In this document: positions 5,072-27,111 of the stretch, one piece after another
Layout of the letters: each line of letters starts with the position of its first letter
Numbering within the stretch: the first letter of the stretch is position 1
Source: a virus
IMG/VR virus record: IMGVR_UViG_3300031772_000003
Location: 32,001-96,000 of that record
Strand: one strand, 5' to 3'
Length of the DNA: 64,000 nt
Notes under the pieces: model-generated
The model's database searches: none
What the model saw: only the letters and a program-made list of their open reading frames with translations
Told to the model about the DNA's origin: nothing
Position numbers and translations under genes: made by a program

Positions 5072-6022
5072 TTACGGAAATACGGGCGTGGTTTGGGTCA
5101 TTTTTTGACATGTGAGTTGACACGATTGGTTACACGTAGAAGTGCAGGACGCTTCGCACCCAGTCATACACCCCCCGGGGGCTCCGGTGCATGCGATTTG
5201 GCACGATACGGTGCAAGCACCCGTGGTGCAGGAGATCATGCAATAATTCGTGCAATTCCCCTGACATGAACACTGACAGAACCCCACGCAGGTCGTCGTG
5301 ATCTCCAAGCCACGGGCCCCACAAGCATCGGGGAACACGGGATCGAACCAGATACCGGCGTCGTTGGGGCTGGTGGCCGTGTCCACGAACGAGCCGCTCA
5401 CGCTCTGTATATCCAGGGGATCGCCGGCGTAATCCGTGTCCGAGGGGACGGGCACCGTAGTCGTAGGGACCTCCGTGGTTCCACCAGGCTTCCGGATGAG
5501 GACGTGGATGGGCCTGAAGGGCTCGGCCACGCCTCCAACGTCCACGCCCTGGTCCCCAGTGGTCATGCTGGGGGTACGGACATCGACCCTGGCCGCCTTT
5601 ATGGTGTGGGCGTAATCGGTGTAGAGCGAGTAGTCGCTCTCCTCATGCAGCTTGGTCTTCCAGAGTTCCCAGGGGAAGTGGTTGATGAAGCCGTGGCACC
5701 TGAGCATCGCCTCCCAGGACGGGCGAGTGGCCTTGATGTGCCACAACAACCCGATAGTCTTGAGGAAGACTCGGCGCTTCGCCGTGGACCAAGTCTTGCT
5801 CGTGCCGAGCCCGAGCAGCTGGCCCATCAAGGCAATGTAGGTGGGGTCAACGGTATCAGGGTCGCGTAAGGTCTTAAGATCCGTGATCTCGGTGGTTGTG
5901 GCTTCTAGTTCCTGCTCCAGCGACTCCACGATCTTCTGGAGTGTACCGATGCTCTCCCCACCCCGCGCCGCGGCGTCGTAGGTCCTCACGACCTCGGGCA
6001 GGAGCCGGTAGAGACCTAACAC
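5072..6022 (-). CDS. Second P2 gpI-like baseplate wedge paralogue with C-terminal CXXX repeat
   Basis: Paralogous to 3434-5053 ([27 protein letters not shown]...DYAHT..AAR, RPIHV, VSGSF.DT); 16 Cys at 5108-5290. Confidence 0.75.
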   Translation of the reverse strand: MLGLYRLLPEVVRTYDAAARGGESIGTLQKIVESLEQELEATTTEITDLKTLRDPDTVDPTYIALMGQLLGLGTSKTWSTAKRRVFLKTIGLLWHIKATRPSWEAMLRCHGFINHFPWELWKTKLHEESDYSLYTDYAHTIKAARVDVRTPSMTTGDQGVDVGGVAEPFRPIHVLIRKPGGTTEVPTTTVPVPSDTDYAGDPLDIQSVSGSFVDTATSPNDAGIWFDPVFPDACGARGLEITTTCVGFCQCSCQGNCTNYCMISCTTGACTVSCQIACTGAPGGCMTGCEASCTSTCNQSCQLTCQKMTQTTPVFP

Positions 6023-6031
6023 GAGCGGCTC

Positions 6032-8686
6032 CTACGTTGCAGCGGCGATGGTGGTAACGGCGATGGTGCCGGGGACCAGAAGCTGATCGGGGCCCAGTGG
6101 CACGTCCTCCGATGGGGTGCGGAGCAACTGCCTGTAGGTGCTGTAGATTTTCGTTCCCGCGGCGGGCACGACGGCGAAGGTGAACTTATAGGCCCCTGTA
6201 TCGTAGTTGATGTAATTCGTACCCGGGGCTACGTCCCCGATCAAGACGCCGTAGCCGTCGTCCACGACGGTTTGCGAGCCCGTCGTGAAGGCGATGCCAC
6301 CAATGGCCAGGATGTCATCGTGGGGGACGATGGGTGGGAACTTGACGGAGCCCTCGACCTCACCCGTGGTCCCATCCATGACTGCCTCCTGCCCGCCCCG
6401 CTGGTAATCGATGAGGTGGCGGAACTCCGCGTTGACCGTTTCGCCCAGCGCTGGGGCACCCGAGAACGTCACATCCACGGCACCCGTCTCGTAATCGATG
6501 GTGTTGGCCCCAGCGGGATCGACGCTCCCGACCAGGAGGCCGTCGCCGTCATCAATGACTACCAAGGTCCCAGCGTCGATCCTCACGGTTCCGGGGATGA
6601 TCGTGAGGTAACGGGTGATGGGGGGGGTGAATGGGAAATTAGTGGCCACGCCGTCACCCGTGGCCACGGTGGACTCAGTTTTGACCGAGGCGGTCATGAC
6701 GTTGATCAATCCATGAGCGACGCCGGCGCTGTCCTGAATCGCGTTGTAGGCCCTGGACAGGTGGAAGTCATCGCCGGGCTCGTAGTCATCGAGCAGGTTC
6801 CTGACTGCCACAGCGACGTTAGTGGAAACCTCGGTGGCGGCGAAGTCGCTCATCAACTGGACCTCGATGCTGAGATCGAGGTAGACGATGATGCCGTCGA
6901 CCACCTCTACGTCGGTACAAATGACCCGGATCGCGCCCTGTCCGTTGTTCATGAAGTAGTTGTACAGCGCGGCCTTGAGGCCCGCGGACGGAGCCACGAT
7001 GGCTCCGGCGTAATCACGGGCCCAAATCGCGGCGCAAACCATATTGTACTCCGGGACCTCCTGCTTCAACCAGCACGACACGAATGCAGGGGCCCCGTAC
7101 ACGGGGTCGCGGAACGCATTGGCCAGGGCATTGAAGTCCGCCCGGGTCACGGCCCTGCCGTTGGCACTGACCCACGGCGGAATCCAGCGGCGGGCATGCT
7201 CTAGGGTCTCCCGGTCGAGCCCGCCGCTGCCCGGCTCCTCGTTCAGGAGATCCATTGGGATCGCCTGGGGCGGCGCGACGCCGTCGAGCCAGCCCGTGAC
7301 CGCGGTGTCGATGGCCCCGATGGGGACGTTGCCGACGAGACCGCCGCCTACACGGTAGGACACGGTGATCGCGGCCCCGTTGGGAGGCAGAGCACCACAA
7401 TCGCCGTCCCCGAATTGGATGTAGCCGTAGTCGTCGTCGTCATAGTCAATGGCGTAGACCTTAGCGGTCCCGTCGCTATAGATCAGCGACTCCACTTCGG
7501 TCCAGTCCACCCCCGCAACCCTTACGACCAGCGAGCCGTCTACGACCTCGGGCACGGTGAGCTTGAACTTCTGCCACGCCGCTCCATCGGAGGTGAAAGC
7601 ATCGGCCTGATCGAGACCCTCCACAAAGGTCAGTAAGGCCGTGAGGTCACCTGCGGGTATCCGCTGGTCCACGACGGTACGGAACGTCACGTCCCCCGTG
7701 GCTGATACCGTGGTGCCGCTGGGCAAAATCGTGTCGTTGGTCTGGACCGACCCGATCGTGGCCTTCACGCGCACTGCCGCCGCTGAGGCGGGCCGGAGCT
7801 TATACCCGACGAGCTTGCCGAGATTGACGATGCTCTCGCGGTGCTGCAATGTGGGGAGGAAGCCTTCGTTGGCGGTGTAGTCGAGGAAATAGCTTAACTG
7901 ATCTGTGCAGTTGTGCAGGAAACACCCCACCGAGAGGCCAAAGTTATGGGGCCCCTCAAGGATGCTGATGTCATATACATCCTCACGCTCTTGGAGTGCC
8001 CGCACAGAAACGATTTTGTGGTTAGCTTGGGCGAGTCGGGCCTTCACAGTGTCCTTCGAGCAAGACAACTGCCGGCTGATCTCTGGAACCGACAGTCCCT
8101 CCTGGCGAAGCCTGATCACGTCTGCTGGCAGGTGGTGGACAATTTCAGACCTCTCCCCAGGAGCGCAGAGGTTATGGGTTCCGACCCACCGCCCTGTTGC
8201 AGGGTTCTTGGTCTGTTCATAACCACGACCAGACTGCCGCCGGTACAGGGGCATCAGGCTGTCCCCCTGCTGAAGTTCGCAGGCTGGTTTATAGGTGCTG
8301 TCACGCATGAGCCACAGGTGGTTAGGTGTGCAGCGGACAGACTTCCCATTGTCAAGAGTGACCTCGACAAGTTCTGCGTCCTGCCGCGTTAGTTTGGCCT
8401 CCGCCAAAGCAGGGACGATATTCTGGCTTTGCTCATCTGCGGCATAGACCCAGAATGGCTCTCGACCTACTAGGTCCTTGATCTCTGCCTCTGCCCCATC
8501 AAGCAGAGGAATCTTTGTCTCCCCTACTACGCAATAGGCAGTGAGCTCTAGCAACGCCATGCCGATGCTGGAGGCGTACAGATCCTGCCAATCACTCGGG
8601 AACCGCGCCTTGATGTGGGAGATGAGCAGGGCCCGAATCGTTGAATAGTCCCTACCCGTGTAGTTGATCGCTGGCAATTGTGCCAT
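6032..8686 (-). CDS. Baseplate wedge protein (baseplate J / T4 gp6-like), intein-containing
   Basis: NYTGRDY...ELTAY/.DQLSYFLD..ANE.FL.T, YIQFGDG..G..P, YRVGGG..GNV, GG.DRET and RAVT..DF motifs; follows the gp25-like gene. Confidence 0.9.
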   Translation of the reverse strand: MAQLPAINYTGRDYSTIRALLISHIKARFPSDWQDLYASSIGMALLELTAYCVVGETKIPLLDGAEAEIKDLVGREPFWVYAADEQSQNIVPALAEAKLTRQDAELVEVTLDNGKSVRCTPNHLWLMRDSTYKPACELQQGDSLMPLYRRQSGRGYEQTKNPATGRWVGTHNLCAPGERSEIVHHLPADVIRLRQEGLSVPEISRQLSCSKDTVKARLAQANHKIVSVRALQEREDVYDISILEGPHNFGLSVGCFLHNCTDQLSYFLDYTANEGFLPTLQHRESIVNLGKLVGYKLRPASAAAVRVKATIGSVQTNDTILPSGTTVSATGDVTFRTVVDQRIPAGDLTALLTFVEGLDQADAFTSDGAAWQKFKLTVPEVVDGSLVVRVAGVDWTEVESLIYSDGTAKVYAIDYDDDDYGYIQFGDGDCGALPPNGAAITVSYRVGGGLVGNVPIGAIDTAVTGWLDGVAPPQAIPMDLLNEEPGSGGLDRETLEHARRWIPPWVSANGRAVTRADFNALANAFRDPVYGAPAFVSCWLKQEVPEYNMVCAAIWARDYAGAIVAPSAGLKAALYNYFMNNGQGAIRVICTDVEVVDGIIVYLDLSIEVQLMSDFAATEVSTNVAVAVRNLLDDYEPGDDFHLSRAYNAIQDSAGVAHGLINVMTASVKTESTVATGDGVATNFPFTPPITRYLTIIPGTVRIDAGTLVVIDDGDGLLVGSVDPAGANTIDYETGAVDVTFSGAPALGETVNAEFRHLIDYQRGGQEAVMDGTTGEVEGSVKFPPIVPHDDILAIGGIAFTTGSQTVVDDGYGVLIGDVAPGTNYINYDTGAYKFTFAVVPAAGTKIYSTYRQLLRTPSEDVPLGPDQLLVPGTIAVTTIAAAT
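7910..8533 (-). mobile_element. Intein (208 aa) with a degenerate homing-endonuclease/HTH insert
   Basis: Starts CVVGETKIPLLDG (block A); CTPNHLWL (block B TxxH); EDVYDISI...HNF (block F); ends FLHN followed by +1 Cys. Excision restores ELTAY-CTDQLSYFLD. Confidence 0.92.
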
Positions 8687-15716: not shown

Positions 15717-17252
15717 TTACTGGATACCCGCGAACTCCTCGAACTGGGCCGCGGCACTGAGCAGCACGTAGTTGACGATGATCTTCTCGGCCCCCTTCTG
15801 AGGCTTGATCAGGACGTTGCCGATCATCTCGGAGCGGTCCCTGGCATCGGGGGTGTTGGTGGTCTCGTCGCAGATGACCCGGTAGTCCTCGATGCCACGC
15901 CGGCGCAAGATCATCTCACAGACAGGCTCTACCATGCGGATGAACCGCAGCCAGGTGAACCTGTCATCTGGTTCATGAACGAGATACCTGACCGAGGTGG
16001 CGATGGACTTTTCGAGGTACAGGAGCATGCGGCGGACGTTCACGCGATCCAGGGCAGTCGAGGCCCTGGCGAGTGTCTGCTGGCCCCACACCGCGGGACC
16101 AATCCCTGTGAAGTTGACGATGGGATTGACGCAGTTGCCCCCGCCGAGCATGTAATCCCGGTCGCCTTGGTTCGGTGAGTACCGCACGTCCAGCACGTCG
16201 GTGAGCATGCCGCGATTGAGGCCCGCTGGATTGAACCAGGGATCAGCGATATAGTCGGTATAAGCATACACGCCCGCTACGTGCCCGCTCGGCGGAATCC
16301 ACACGTCGGCATCGGCGTAGCCGTCGTGGACTTGAACCCAGGGGTGATAGGTCGCGGCGTAGCTGCTGTTGAGGGCTACGGCTGGACCGCCAGCGTACAC
16401 GCCGTTGTGCCAGTCCACCACCTCCTGGACCGTGAGGTAGTCTGGCGGATCGATCAGGGACATGCAATCGGCACGGGTAGCCGCAATGTCAATGAGTTCC
16501 GTGACCACACTGGGATCGCTCTGGCCCGGTGCGGCGAGGAGATTGATGTCGATGGTCTCGGACTGCCGGAAGATTTGGAGGCCCGTGGGTGGAATGAGTG
16601 GGGGGCTGCCGCCGGCCCCGATGATCTCCGAGGCGCTGACACCGGCCCCATCATCTCCGCCCACGAGTGCGTAGGTGCCGGTCCGGAGCGTCGTTTTCGT
16701 GGTGTCGGGCGCGACCGAGACGTAAGAGCTACCCGGGTACTTGTACGTGGTGTCCCCGTTGATCCACTTGCCGACGTAGTTGCGGTCACTCACGTAAGCG
16801 GCACCAACCCTGATCTGATCGTAGACCTCGGCCACGGCCCCTTGGTCCGTGATCACGATGCGGTAGGCCCCCGATACCACGGATGCCGAGATGACGATCT
16901 GCACCGTGTTGGCCCACGACCCCGAAGTGTCCGCGGTAAAGGCCAAGGCGGTGCCGGTGAGGCCGGCATCCTGCACCACGACCGAAGCGGCGGCGTCGTA
17001 GTGGGCAACCCTGACGACCTTCAGTTGCGTGCCCTTTCGGAGGTAGCGGATCGCGGAGAGGCCGCCGAGATGGGCCAGCGAGGGCTTGCCGAAGGTCCGG
17101 ACGTAGCTGGGCTCATCGGTGATCAGCGTCATCGCGTTCACCGGACCCTTCGCAGCCGTAGTGACGATGCCAAAGCTGGACGTAGAGAGCATGCGGACGT
17201 AGTTGCTGTAGTCCAGCTCGCGCCAGTACGCACCAGGGGAGAGAACGATCAT
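15717..17252 (-). CDS. Contractile tail sheath protein (gp18-like)
   Basis: LSPGAY..E.D.S, KGP, PPSGHVAGV, WFNPAGLNRG, VNPI, VWGQQTL...SALDRVNVRR. Confidence 0.95.
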   Translation of the reverse strand: MIVLSPGAYWRELDYSNYVRMLSTSSFGIVTTAAKGPVNAMTLITDEPSYVRTFGKPSLAHLGGLSAIRYLRKGTQLKVVRVAHYDAAASVVVQDAGLTGTALAFTADTSGSWANTVQIVISASVVSGAYRIVITDQGAVAEVYDQIRVGAAYVSDRNYVGKWINGDTTYKYPGSSYVSVAPDTTKTTLRTGTYALVGGDDGAGVSASEIIGAGGSPPLIPPTGLQIFRQSETIDINLLAAPGQSDPSVVTELIDIAATRADCMSLIDPPDYLTVQEVVDWHNGVYAGGPAVALNSSYAATYHPWVQVHDGYADADVWIPPSGHVAGVYAYTDYIADPWFNPAGLNRGMLTDVLDVRYSPNQGDRDYMLGGGNCVNPIVNFTGIGPAVWGQQTLARASTALDRVNVRRMLLYLEKSIATSVRYLVHEPDDRFTWLRFIRMVEPVCEMILRRRGIEDYRVICDETTNTPDARDRSEMIGNVLIKPQKGAEKIIVNYVLLSAAAQFEEFAGIQ

Positions 17253-19560: not shown

Positions 19561-19815
19561 TCACCTCCCCATATGCTGGGCCTCCGGGGCACTGCTGGCC
19601 GACACCCCGGCGTCCCTCTTTTCCATCTGCCGCCGCCGCTCCCGGGCCAACTCGTTGAGACTGATGCCCTCGCGCGCCGCCCACGCCACGACCGCGGGTG
19701 GGAACTTCGCTATGATGAGCAACTCCGCGACCTTTGCCACGCGGTCTACAGTTGTCTCGGTCGGCCACGAGCAACCCGCAAGGATGCAGGTGACGAGGAT
19801 AGCGGCGACGCGCAT
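19561..19815 (-). CDS. Small lipoprotein
   Basis: MRVAAILVTCILAG-C lipobox. Confidence 0.65.
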   Translation of the reverse strand: MRVAAILVTCILAGCSWPTETTVDRVAKVAELLIIAKFPPAVVAWAAREGISLNELARERRRQMEKRDAGVSASSAPEAQHMGR

Positions 19816-19816
19816 G

Positions 19817-19993
19817 CTAATCTCCCGTTTCGTCCCACATGTTCGATACCGAATCGCTGATCGTCAGGTTCGAGTTCCAGCGGGCGTAGCGGATGATTAC
19901 CCGCACGACGATCAGGCACAGCAAACCACGCACTATCCCATAGAGGAGCCAGAGGCCAGCGCCGGCGAGTAGTGCGTAGAGCAGCCAGTTCAT
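19817..19993 (-). CDS. Small membrane protein (58 aa, absent from the ORF track)
   Basis: MNWLLYALLAGAGLWLLYGIVRGLLCLIVVRVIIRYARW...; fills the gap exactly; GGTGAG RBS. Confidence 0.6.
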   Translation of the reverse strand: MNWLLYALLAGAGLWLLYGIVRGLLCLIVVRVIIRYARWNSNLTISDSVSNMWDETGD

Positions 19994-20029
19994 CTTCTCA
20001 CCTGCCCCACAAGAGCCGCAGCACCTCCC

Positions 20030-20485
20030 TCATGGGATTGGAAGCCCTGCCGCAGTGAGAGCGGCCTTGGCGTCGCTCGCCTTCCCATTCAGGTCTTGGC
20101 GGAACTTCGCCACGTAGAACTTGAGGAGCTTTTGTGAATACTCCACGTCCGAGATCGTGCCGGCGGCGTGCCCTTTGACCAAAGGGGCGAGGATGATAAA
20201 TGGTCAGGTCGAGCCGTTATGAACGCCGTCCCAAGTGACCTCGGTGTAGTAGCGGTGGAGGATGTCGAGCGTCCGCCAATCGGGGCCGGCGAGGAACGGC
20301 TTGCAGAAGTCGATGTCGGCTTGGGTCTGGTTCGGCACTCCAACGCTGGAGCACCCGCCCACGTTAATCGGAACCTCGAAGCCGTCGATGACGGTCCTCG
20401 GCCTGCGAACCATGCCCGGCCCGCACGATACCAGGGCCACGGTCAACGCGACGACGGCCTTCTTCGCCCACGACACGTTGCGCAT
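20030..20485 (-). CDS. Lipoprotein with an in-frame TGA at 20204-20206; candidate selenoprotein (151 aa if read through)
   Basis: AGGAGG RBS; LVS-C lipobox; the frame continues 57 codons past the TGA; SECIS-like hairpin downstream. Confidence 0.6.
20170..20188 (-). promoter_or_regulatory. Putative bacterial SECIS hairpin G(C)CCCUUU-GGUC-AAAGGGC
   Basis: 6-bp stem plus one further pair after a bulge; GGUC loop at +24 to +27 after the UGA. Confidence 0.55.
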
Positions 20486-20512
20486 CGGCACGCCTCCTAT
20501 GCCAAAAAAAAG

Positions 20513-21223
20513 TTACATCACCAGCGGCCCTTGGATGCGGCTCAACCGCTTGATCGTCGCCTCGGCTTCCGCGATCAGTTTAGCCGAATCCGTTGCAAGT
20601 TGTGCCGCATTCGTGGCCAACTGGCCCCCGGGGGCAGGCACCATCGGGAACTTGCCCCTGATCTCGGACAGGATGCCCTTGGCATAGCCAAGGACGGCCT
20701 TCTTCAGGACATCGACGTACTGCACCTTGCCTTTCTCGAAGTCGCCGGCATCGAGGGGAACGGCGACGATGTAGGCGATGTCGAAAGGCCCGCCCCAGCA
20801 GTCCACGAAGACCTTCCTGCTCGTCCCGTCGTAGGTCCAGCCGGGCTCCCTGCCCCTCACGCGCTGGTACAGCTTATACTGGCTGCGGTAGAAGTACCAA
20901 TCGCCCACCGGCATCCTCGGCCAAACCATCCTGAACATGAGCTCGAAGATGTTCATTTCCGAGTATTCACGAAGCTCCTGGGGCATCAGGAACTTCATGG
21001 TGAGGATGCCCCTGTCGGTGGGGTTGAGTTGGATCACCACCGATCCAACTTGGCTGCGCAAGACCCGAAGTTCGCGGCCAGAGGTGTAGTGGTTGAAGAG
21101 GTCGAGGGCGTCCTGGACCGATGTGGTGAGGTGGGTCTCGGTAAGCTCGACCTCAACCTCTGGGGCACCTAACCTGGCCTTGATCCAGTCCTTGAGCGTC
21201 GTCGTGAAAGTTTCGGCGGACAT
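20513..21223 (-). CDS. Neck / head-tail adaptor protein (gp13-like)
   Basis: WIKARLGAP.VEVELTE..L...VQDAL; AKGILSEIRGKF..VP.PGG...NA..L. Confidence 0.8.
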   Translation of the reverse strand: MSAETFTTTLKDWIKARLGAPEVEVELTETHLTTSVQDALDLFNHYTSGRELRVLRSQVGSVVIQLNPTDRGILTMKFLMPQELREYSEMNIFELMFRMVWPRMPVGDWYFYRSQYKLYQRVRGREPGWTYDGTSRKVFVDCWGGPFDIAYIVAVPLDAGDFEKGKVQYVDVLKKAVLGYAKGILSEIRGKFPMVPAPGGQLATNAAQLATDSAKLIAEAEATIKRLSRIQGPLVM

Positions 21224-25334: not shown

Positions 25335-26861
25335 TCACTTGCCTTCGAGGCTAGACATGGCCTCCATGAGGGTCGGCACCCTGGCGGGCTTCACCTCTTC
25401 CACGACGGTCTTCGGCCCCTCTTTGGGGGCCTCCTTGGGATCAACGGCCTCCTTGATCGGCTTGGGGGCCGGCTTCGGGTCCGCTACGGGGGCGGGCTCG
25501 GGTGTCTCGGTGGGGGCCGGTGCCTCGTCTTCCATGAGCCTGGCCCGCAGCGCCCGCAGGAGGCGCAGCGACTCCGCGTACTTCGCCTCGGCGAGCCGAG
25601 CCCTCCGCTGCCACTTCACAGCGTCGGTGCGGAAATCCTCCGCGACGCGCTTCAGAGTGTCATAACGCTTCCCGCCCGCTCTGGCCTTGAGCTCATCGTT
25701 CTCGGCCTTGAGGGCCGCGACGCGCTCCGCAAGATGCACGGCGACCTCCGCGCCTGTTGCCGTCCCTGCCATTGCCGATCTCCTTGTCTCAGATTTGTGA
25801 CCGTCACCTACACTATACGCGCGAGCCTTGGAGCTCGGTTCCGGGGCTTTCGCTTCTACAAGCTTGGGGGCGGGGGGCTGTTTCGACTCCTTCGTCGGCT
25901 CTGCTTCCGCAGCCTCCTTCTCTTTGTGGGTCTTAGCGGCCTTATCCTCCTCCGGTTCTTTCTTGCCGCCGCCCACGAGGTCCGAGACTTTGCCGGCGAC
26001 GACCTTGCCGAGGGCCAGCAAACCCCCCCGCAGCTTCGAGCCATTGGGGCTATTGTCCGCGCCCAATCTGTCGAGAATGGTCATGACGCGGCTCAGAAGA
26101 TCGGCGAGAGGCCCAGCGGCCTTGCCGGTGTTGATCACGTCCTCAAGCTCGCGCACCAGGGCCTCAGCGGCGGTCACGGTCTCGGGGTCGACACCGTTGC
26201 CGCCTGGAGGCAGGGATCGCTCTTCAGGGGTTGGGGGCTCACCCGCGATCTCGATACCGCCCGCGGCGGGGATCTCACCGGCCTGCTCGCGGAGCCTATG
26301 GAGCGCTGCCATGACCGACTGGTCCGTCACGTAATCCCAAGTGGTGAGTTGGAAGTCGTCCTTCACGTCCTCGCAACCGTCGCCGCCGGGCATCGTTTCG
26401 CCGTCACCCCGTGAAGAGCATCCTACAGCGCATCCGCACCTGAGAAACTCCTCCAGCGTCAAGCCCTCATGGGTACGGAATACCAGGATGTCGCCCACGA
26501 CATAGTCACCGGGCTCGACCCCGGATTTGTGGCCGGGACCAACTGCCTCGATATGCACGGCCTCGATGAGGTGGCTGCCCTTGGAGAGGTCAGAGGTCCC
26601 GCTCGCGGGATGCTCCAACTGGCCAATGACGCGGCGCTCCGCGAGCCGACGCATAAAGGGGCTATCGGCCTTGAAGTTGTTCTCCCATACGCTGCGGCCA
26701 TAGCGCCGCTTATTGGCGTTGGGCTTGCCCACGGCTTGGAGGATCTGGTTCTTGAGCCGGAGCCTGGGAACGCCGTCGCCGAAGGCGGAGCGATCCCACT
26801 CCATCTGGACCGGCTTAGCGAAGAATGGGGCAGTACGCTCGGTAATTATTCCGCGTGGCAT
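25335..26861 (-). CDS. Prohead protease (T4 gp21-like) fused to a scaffold-like C-terminal region; start revised to ATG 26861
   Basis: N.N.R.Y, GQLEHP, SH.I, VGCSSRGDG and FQL.TWDYV.D.S motifs, then charged and coiled-coil segments; GGAGG RBS. Confidence 0.88.
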   Translation of the reverse strand: MPRGIITERTAPFFAKPVQMEWDRSAFGDGVPRLRLKNQILQAVGKPNANKRRYGRSVWENNFKADSPFMRRLAERRVIGQLEHPASGTSDLSKGSHLIEAVHIEAVGPGHKSGVEPGDYVVGDILVFRTHEGLTLEEFLRCGCAVGCSSRGDGETMPGGDGCEDVKDDFQLTTWDYVTDQSVMAALHRLREQAGEIPAAGGIEIAGEPPTPEERSLPPGGNGVDPETVTAAEALVRELEDVINTGKAAGPLADLLSRVMTILDRLGADNSPNGSKLRGGLLALGKVVAGKVSDLVGGGKKEPEEDKAAKTHKEKEAAEAEPTKESKQPPAPKLVEAKAPEPSSKARAYSVGDGHKSETRRSAMAGTATGAEVAVHLAERVAALKAENDELKARAGGKRYDTLKRVAEDFRTDAVKWQRRARLAEAKYAESLRLLRALRARLMEDEAPAPTETPEPAPVADPKPAPKPIKEAVDPKEAPKEGPKTVVEEVKPARVPTLMEAMSSLEGK

Positions 26862-27111
26862 TCGGCAGGTCCTCCGGTGAGATCCACTCGTGCGTATGCT
26901 CCTGGGGATCATACGCCACGGTGTAGAAGTTCCAAACATAGTCTACTGTGAAACCGGGATCGACGTTTCCAAGACTCCACAGCCAAGCCACGAGATCGTC
27001 GGGCACAAGGTCGTAGCTCGACCCGTCGGGGAGCCAGACCGTGATGGCCCTGCCGCCGTGCCTACGGGTGAGGTACAGCGTCCCCGACAGCGCCACGTCT
27101 CGGGGCGGCAT
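26815..27111 (-). CDS. Hypothetical protein (C-terminal part of the 26815-27480 track ORF)
   Basis: Protein-like composition from MPPRDVALSG onward; overlaps both neighbours by about 50 nt. Confidence 0.4.
   Translation of the reverse strand: MPPRDVALSGTLYLTRRHGGRAITVWLPDGSSYDLVPDDLVAWLWSLGNVDPGFTVDYVWNFYTVAYDPQEHTHEWISPEDLPNATRNNYRAYCPILR

Follow-up and report, generated by a model that had tools for sequence, protein, structure and literature searches.

Does an in-frame UGA in a small lipoprotein gene of an uncultured phage end a truncated protein, or is it read as selenocysteine (Sec), as an earlier sequence-only reading of the same DNA had proposed? The gene belongs to an IMG/VR record of 163,716 bp (a 164-kb uncultured phage, estimated to be 92% complete), of which positions 32001-96000 were analysed; this whole stretch of 64,000 nucleotides is called the window in the following. 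According to its PHROG matches the phage is a tailed one, and all structural genes listed in Table 1 are located on the minus strand. From comparison with relatives, the UGA at codon 94 of this gene is very probably decoded as Sec, the actual insertion of selenium being what we infer from that comparative support.

Table 1. Position of the candidate seleno-lipoprotein gene, its sequence elements and surrounding structural genes in the window
Feature	Position in window	Strand	Basis
Baseplate wedge	6032-8686	-	PHROG
Tail sheath	15717-17252	-	PHROG, E 1e-83
Tape measure, tail fibres		-	PHROG matches
True stop TGA, no hairpin behind it	20030..20032	-	Most family members have their C-terminus, ...AAGLPxP, at this point
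57-codon C-terminal part, made only if the UGA is decoded; three of five predicted domain helices	20033..20203	-	Family conservation, AF2, codon-position GC
Candidate seleno-lipoprotein, full frame of 151 codons, ATG at 20485, UGA = codon 94	20033..20485	-	Translation; both halves covered by full-length homologues of 150-216 aa
SECIS-like hairpin, +16..+34 after UGA; stem of 6-7 bp, 5' bulged C, GGUC loop at +24..+27	20170..20188	-	Compared with fdhF
In-frame UGA, codon 94, proposed Sec codon	20204..20206	-	Aligns with invariant Cys; TGA at this column in L009, L013, L017, L018, L019 and L020
His89 codon, family-invariant, five residues before Sec	20219..20221	-	30-member alignment
Signal peptide and lipobox L-V-S-C (Cys21)	20423..20485	-	Sequence; Cys21 nearly invariant; AF2 helix at residues 5-24
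Shine-Dalgarno AGGAGG, 7 nt 5' of ATG	20493..20498	-	Sequence
Head-tail adaptor-like protein (PHROG match), immediately upstream of the lipoprotein gene	20513-21223	-	
Head maturation protease	25335-26939	-	PHROG

Re-reading of the sequence returned the open reading frame, the TGA, the 57-codon continuation and the position of the hairpin as they had been described before. The product preceding the UGA reads ...W-D-G-V-H-N-G-S-T, directly followed by the TGA (20206-20204). The earlier assignment to lipoproteins is likewise borne out: a basic n-region and a hydrophobic core precede L-V-S-C21, a lipobox of the pattern [LVI][ASTVI][GAS]C, whose Cys hardly varies in the protein family described below. 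The tail behind the UGA is of coding-type composition, with a codon-position GC of 0.61/0.42/0.74 as compared to 0.64/0.49/0.69 for the genes of the phage. Gene callers split the gene into fragments of 93 and 50 aa, the shorter one being an ORF with a TTG start (P0017). On the plus strand, a 334-aa ORF (window 20168-21172) overlaps the lipoprotein gene as well as the adaptor-like gene upstream of it; its GC3 of 0.59 lies below that of the minus-strand genes, and it has the appearance of a shadow ORF on the antisense strand of this high-GC region, wrongly picked by crude longest-ORF calling.

The simplest explanations of an interrupted frame would be a sequencing error or a general reading of TGA as a sense codon in the phage or its host (a recoding resembling code 4 or 25), and stop-codon recoding is indeed known in some phages. 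However, an independent Logan assembly of a sediment metagenome run, from which the record probably stems, contains a 54.9-kb contig, which spans positions 19700-20900 at approximately 29x coverage with zero differences, so that the TGA, the base that the sequence-only reading had wanted confirmed, is not an assembly slip (the matching piece of a second run comprises 151 nt, with the UGA outside of it); moreover, the same TGA recurs in many assemblies from different samples. As regards a general recoding, TGA was correctly taken for an ordinary stop elsewhere in this genome: it is the commonest stop codon of the phage and terminates 96 of 162 crude gene calls, and a search of the phage for tRNA genes found none, which also argues against such a recoding. 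The genes neighbouring the relatives that carry TGA at the same position (Sec forms, see below) mostly end in an ordinary TGA, and two of these relatives, L013 and L019, themselves end in a second TGA; the decoding would thus be site-specific. General recoding and sequencing error are therefore both effectively refuted.

Whether the part behind the UGA belongs to the protein can be judged from its relatives. When 5.8 billion proteins were searched by word index with the read-through product, a query that the sequence-only reading had suggested for tBLASTn against viral metagenomes, five full-length homologues were obtained (150-158 aa, 41-52% identity), which span both halves of the frame and contain an invariant Cys at the UGA column, in the motif T-C-P-I/F-L; at the DNA level, eight metagenome loci show TGC or TGT at this column. 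When 1.84 billion representatives were searched exhaustively with a profile, 34 relatives came up. The family consists of about 32 metagenomic proteins, and the UGA aligns with the sole invariant Cys other than that of the lipobox, present in all 24-25 full-length homologues. The aligned column is hence either Cys or a conserved TGA, and homology, the end of which at the TGA had been named beforehand as evidence to the contrary, runs on to the C-terminus. Only four columns are invariant in the alignment of 30 members (Leu65, His89, Cys/Sec94 and Pro95), and the tail of the window protein behind the UGA keeps every invariant residue of the family.

The protein itself falls outside the families recognised so far, as had been supposed: none of the 30 members has a hit in NCBIfam, Pfam gives no hit common to the family members, and PHROGs match the protein at E > 0.2 only. 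A possible identity with SHOCT or DUF1707 (PF08044) was rejected, given a score of 16.7 bits for the tail of the window protein only (gathering threshold 27.6 bits) and no match of any other member. Relatives of the protein were found neither among phage GenBank records and IMG/VR, using tblastn and peptide patterns, nor among 185,579 species genomes.

The UGA is not confined to the window. Seven mutually divergent cluster representatives (50% identity level) have the Thr preceding the Cys column as their very last residue, and P0022, like the TTG ORF P0017 of the window itself, begins a few residues past it. DNA was read for P0018, P0020, P0021, P0033 and P0034 and, via P0022, for a sixth lineage (loci L009-12, L013-16, L017, L018, L019 and L020-22; the assemblies, held in ENA and Logan, stem from numerous different samples), the truncated representatives P0026 and P0035 being known as protein ends only. 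In all six lineages with DNA read, TGA occupies the Cys column and the frame runs uninterrupted across the conserved C-terminal half as far as ...AAGLPxP or beyond; several lineages are represented on three to four contigs (22 for P0026), mostly from different samples. In a maximum-likelihood tree, the six full-length Sec forms share one well-supported clade with 13 Cys forms, between which they are interspersed in such a way that well-supported branches force at least two switches between Sec and Cys and parsimony gives five. Scattering of Sec among Cys forms is the usual pattern of Sec/Cys families. The contigs of the Sec forms all have a GC content of 63-67% (the phage 61%), and those of the Cys forms either 46-47% or 65-68%.

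These lineages bear on the possibility that the TGA arose by a recent nonsense mutation of TGC or TGT, leaving a lipoprotein cut short at 93 residues, or a pseudogene, with a downstream frame that has not yet decayed. One transversion in a Cys codon suffices to yield TGA, and the closest relatives of the window protein by identity are Cys forms (52%). Nevertheless, the six other lineages with TGA, which are only about 40-50% identical, all combine it with intact, conserved coding sequence downstream and with a position-matched hairpin, and the tail of the window protein retains, besides the invariant residues, its coding-type composition.

The hairpin following the UGA in the window, G(C)CCCUUU-GGUC-AAAGGGC, has a counterpart in each of the other UGA forms. 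All seven are predicted to form a hairpin of 5-9 bp with a loop of 3-4 nt beginning with G (GGUC, GUG, GUU, GUU, GGU, GUU and GGA) and energies from -5.2 to -14.5 kcal/mol, the loop starting at +21 in L017 and L018 and at +24 in the other five. Pairs were counted by a loop-anchored script, MAFFT having aligned the hairpins by codon and not by structure: stem levels 1-5 pair in 7/7 forms, with three to four pair types at levels 1, 2, 3 and 5, and levels 6-8 pair in five to six of the seven. The peptides encoded by the hairpins differ (APLVKGH, GPAWRDH, QPKFSAH and others), that is, structure is conserved in these predicted hairpins and sequence is not. Lack of conservation of the hairpin had been put forward as a finding that would speak against Sec; what is seen is a co-varying hairpin kept in every UGA form. 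Under a strict rule (G-first loop of 3-4 nt at +21 or +24, at least 5 bp), which was set after seeing the data, the hairpin is present in 7/7 UGA forms and in 0/5 distinct Cys forms with TGC or TGT (Fisher p = 0.0013, to be read as post hoc); the background of this pattern is 1.15% of the in-frame positions in the phage genes.

Caution should be exercised with regard to the window hairpin when taken alone. Its stability, -5.2 kcal/mol, is the lowest among the seven, an equally stable hairpin occurs at about 25% of in-frame genome positions under loose, bSECIS-like rules, and the 76-nt region is no more stable than its shuffles (z = +1.6). Folding with RNAfold, another check suggested by the sequence-only reading, gave a divided answer, since the hairpin can be found but the minimum free energy structure favours a competing pairing (UGACCA/UGGUCA). 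The window hairpin is thus unremarkable by itself and gains significance only through comparison with its relatives. A search of Rfam returned zero SECIS matches at E up to 10 for the window and the six Sec-form loci, which is unsurprising, as bacterial SECIS elements are heterogeneous and poorly covered by general models (PMC12013277). The unremarkable nature of the window hairpin under loose criteria can be counted in favour of a nonsense mutation; against it stands the Val codon which creates the GGUC loop and which replaces the Gln or Glu present there in the nearest Cys-form relatives of the window gene. Together with the lineages described above, this renders a recent nonsense mutation highly improbable.

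As a separate observation, the UGA is able to pair with a downstream complement, UGACCA/UGGUCA in the window (20182-20206, minus strand) and UGACCCC/GGGGUCA in L009 (673-722), forming a long-range stem that competes with the SECIS hairpin or encloses it. In this way the UGA itself may be embedded in RNA structure, an arrangement also present at the base of the fdhF element.

In its architecture the window hairpin closely resembles the element of Escherichia coli K-12 fdhF (NC_000913, UGA codon 140): both have three pairs below a GGUC loop, then a 5' bulged pyrimidine and another three to four pairs, and the energies of the upper stem-loop are similar (-4.2 kcal/mol in fdhF, -4.8 in the window). 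They differ in the start of the loop, located at +19 in fdhF and five nucleotides farther, at +24, in the window (+21 in two relatives). The bSECIS model of Zhang and Gladyshev from 2005 reportedly allows a spacing of 16-37 nt, and the loop of the window falls within this range.

These features help to weigh a further explanation, namely that the UGA is passed without selenium, either by low-frequency read-through with a near-cognate Cys or Trp tRNA or by reinitiation at the TTG at 20182, giving two products. Hairpins 3' of stop codons can stimulate ordinary read-through, the 50-aa TTG ORF P0017 is listed by gene callers, and Sec decoding presupposes a Sec-competent host. Yet in ordinary read-through the identity of the inserted residue would be unimportant, whereas the column is strictly Cys or UGA, which is a signature of Sec; the small G-first loop, the spacing of the SelB type and the fdhF-like architecture point in the same direction, and no relative (L013, L019 and others) possesses a start codon at the TTG position. 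Selenium-free read-through or reinitiation is accordingly considered very unlikely, and even nonsense mutation, plain read-through, recoding and sequencing error taken jointly make an unlikely account of the locus. The Sec reading of the UGA through a SECIS hairpin, as originally proposed, is by contrast strongly supported by the Cys column, the six TGA lineages and the co-varying hairpins. It is the comparison among aligned relatives that establishes the Sec/Cys column, the recurrence of the UGA and the co-variation of the hairpin.

Under Sec decoding, the gene would give rise to a 151-residue prolipoprotein in the following way. Codon 94 would be translated by the bacterial route, with the mRNA hairpin at +16-34 acting as a SECIS element inside the ORF and recruiting the host SelB.GTP.Sec-tRNA(Sec) complex to the ribosome, after which translation would continue for 57 codons. 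The phage would contribute the signal in the mRNA alone, and SelA, SelB, SelD and tRNA-Sec would be supplied by the host: selA, selB, the tRNA-Sec gene (selC) and selD were searched in the phage and none was found, so that decoding must make use of the host. The product would then be exported and lipid-anchored at Cys21, carrying a compact, all-alpha domain (residues ~51-151) with Sec94 capping a helix at its N-terminal end and the invariant His located five residues ahead of Sec94. Such a protein would possess a single reactive selenol or thiol centre, which may serve redox or thiol-exchange reactions, possibly metal binding, in the host envelope late in infection.

Bacterial genes decoded with SelB and SECIS share with this gene the alignment of the UGA with Cys of homologues and a stem-loop directly 3' of it inside the ORF, and differ from it in that here the gene is carried by a phage without Sec machinery of its own and encodes a protein outside the Pfam and NCBIfam families. 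The BSepDB database holds 111 bacterial selenoprotein families, and its text contains neither phage nor lipoprotein (PMC13326102); the same applies to phages and lipoproteins in the text on deep-Sep (PMC12013277). Viral selenoproteins in a 2021 review on recoding are limited to two poxvirus GPx genes, GPx1-like in molluscum contagiosum and GPx4-like in fowlpox (PMC8310308). As in the phage, these are viral genes depending on the Sec machinery of the host, and fowlpox too has its SECIS inside the coding region (PMC8310308). In contrast to the phage gene, the poxvirus ones belong to eukaryotic viruses, are captured cellular GPx genes and are decoded by eukaryotic SECIS and SBP2, whereas decoding in the phage would be of bacterial type and no cellular counterpart was found for its family. 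The sequence-only reading knew of no characterised phage selenoprotein, and our search of full-text literature likewise found no report of one. As to decoding, the mechanism would be that already known from bacteria; new are its carrier, a phage, the protein family and the predicted fold.

Phage envelope lipoproteins include Llp of T5 and o-spanins such as Rz1 of lambda. The protein described here shares with them its small size, export, a lipobox and a gene located in a phage late region, but shows neither sequence nor fold similarity to them and differs by its Sec/Cys-His centre; o-spanins are also smaller than this protein, which has ~130 mature residues and a predicted folded helical domain.

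The AlphaFold2 model, built on the 30-sequence alignment, has a mean pLDDT of 86 (>90 for residues 51-151) and consists of a signal helix, a linker which is poorly defined and contains a beta-hairpin, and a domain of five helices, in which Sec94 is placed directly before helix 95-108, five residues after His89. Since three of the five helices lie behind the UGA, a product stopped there would have no folded domain; as far as the model goes, this also disfavours a truncated protein left by nonsense mutation, and a domain predicted to be a single folding unit across the UGA disfavours read-through or reinitiation with two products. Comparisons of the model and the sequence with known proteins gave no relative: Foldseek against the PDB had zero matches at E <= 0.001, the best Z in a wide VIA-align search was 4.5, no better than noise for helical proteins, a sequence profile had zero matches in the PDB, and an ESM Atlas feature search with the Cys homologue P0004 as query gave 0.81, the chance level. 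The model therefore represents a predicted new all-alpha fold of no known family. A thioredoxin-fold oxidoreductase was considered and rejected, as the model is all-alpha, T-U-P-F-I lacks the second Cys needed for a CxxC or UxxC motif, and zero PDB matches were obtained.

Two functional suggestions of the sequence-only reading found no support. It had regarded the two other Cys residues of the mature chain as redox partners, but Cys45 and Cys61 vary even among the Sec forms, and the reactive centre would therefore comprise the single Sec/Cys, which is probably assisted by His89. A redox role for Cys-rich virion proteins had also been considered; nothing links these to the lipoprotein, and virions are assembled in the cytoplasm while this protein would be exported. 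Sec at a helix cap, alternating with Cys, is a hallmark of a redox-active or nucleophilic residue, and for this reason we propose, tentatively and on the basis of residue conservation and the predicted model, that the protein uses its selenol for redox or thiol-exchange reactions in the envelope; we regard this role as possible rather than probable.

Some of the relatives are found next to cysteine proteases. In the Cys forms L003 and L004, the next gene downstream (5597-6517 and 1070-1960) contains a caspase domain of Peptidase_C14 (E 2e-22 and 2e-16), and in the Sec form L009 it is a papain-family Peptidase_C1 (857-1627; Pfam E 3e-6, PHROG peptidase E 4e-11). In the phage of the window, a homologous metacaspase is encoded about 73 kb away from the lipoprotein gene, outside the window (G000:C1:125230-126105). 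Apart from the lipoprotein gene, the genes neighbouring it in the window have zero counterparts on the contigs of the relatives at E < 1e-4. This pattern suggests a possible functional link of the lipoprotein with phage cysteine proteases. One could go further and envisage an undescribed family of exported phage seleno-lipoproteins with a new all-alpha fold and a Sec(Cys)-His centre in the envelope, tied to cysteine proteases, for example in an unconventional pathway that lyses Planctomycetota-like hosts or remodels their envelope, with the lipoprotein as redox switch or partner; as a whole, this picture is speculative and its correctness doubtful.

The mention of Planctomycetota derives from a pilin-like ORF of 72 aa, which lacks a hydrophobic stretch at its N-terminus and lies 24.9 kb ahead of the window (G000:C1:6885-7103, minus strand); its single relative among the species genomes is found in Rhodopirellula baltica (46% identity). 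This one match is a weak lead to a planctomycete as the putative host; SelB was searched in that strain of R. baltica and not found, and the methyltransferase and glycosyltransferase genes of the phage, when searched for host-like genes, gave generic matches only. Among 201 sampled Planctomycetota genomes, 144 have SelB above the curated cut-off. SelD has an in-frame TGA in four of five examined Planctomycetota genomes, and the fifth contains two SelD matches, one with and one without TGA; as the single in-frame TGA falls in the motif C-[AG]-G-U-A-[GA]-K (G034, G063, G152, G160, G167; loci L029-L032), SelD itself is a selenoprotein in these planctomycetes. The SECIS loops of these SelD genes are heterogeneous, with one GGUCG at +27, one GUC at +34 and two cases without a clear loop, and are thus compatible and at the same time uninformative.

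Should the Sec reading be correct, phages would tap the host machinery for the 21st amino acid for proteins of their own, bringing along their own SECIS. Annotation would be affected too, with phage genes being systematically truncated at such UGAs. Selenium availability and the Sec capacity of the host could then limit phage fitness and host range, offering a marker for host prediction. The compact, confidently modelled fold with one Sec/Cys-His centre makes the protein a target in the search for new selenol chemistry of the envelope, for which the Sec/Cys pairs inside one clade provide natural experimental controls.

A genome-wide scan of the phage for a second Sec gene left only one weak candidate, an in-frame TGA with coding-like flanks and a G-containing hairpin at G000:C1:99270 on the minus strand, beyond the end of the window (67270 in its numbering), the hairpin of which has -5.6 kcal/mol and a 7-nt loop at +21. 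Directly downstream of the lipoprotein gene (window 19561-19993, minus strand), two further small proteins are encoded, a membrane protein of 58 aa with a single pass and a second lipoprotein of 84 aa with the lipobox L-A-G-C, which may form a small cluster of envelope proteins; the beginning of the 84-aa lipoprotein resembles, at 50% over 30 residues, the sequence downstream of the gene for the Cys form on L005.
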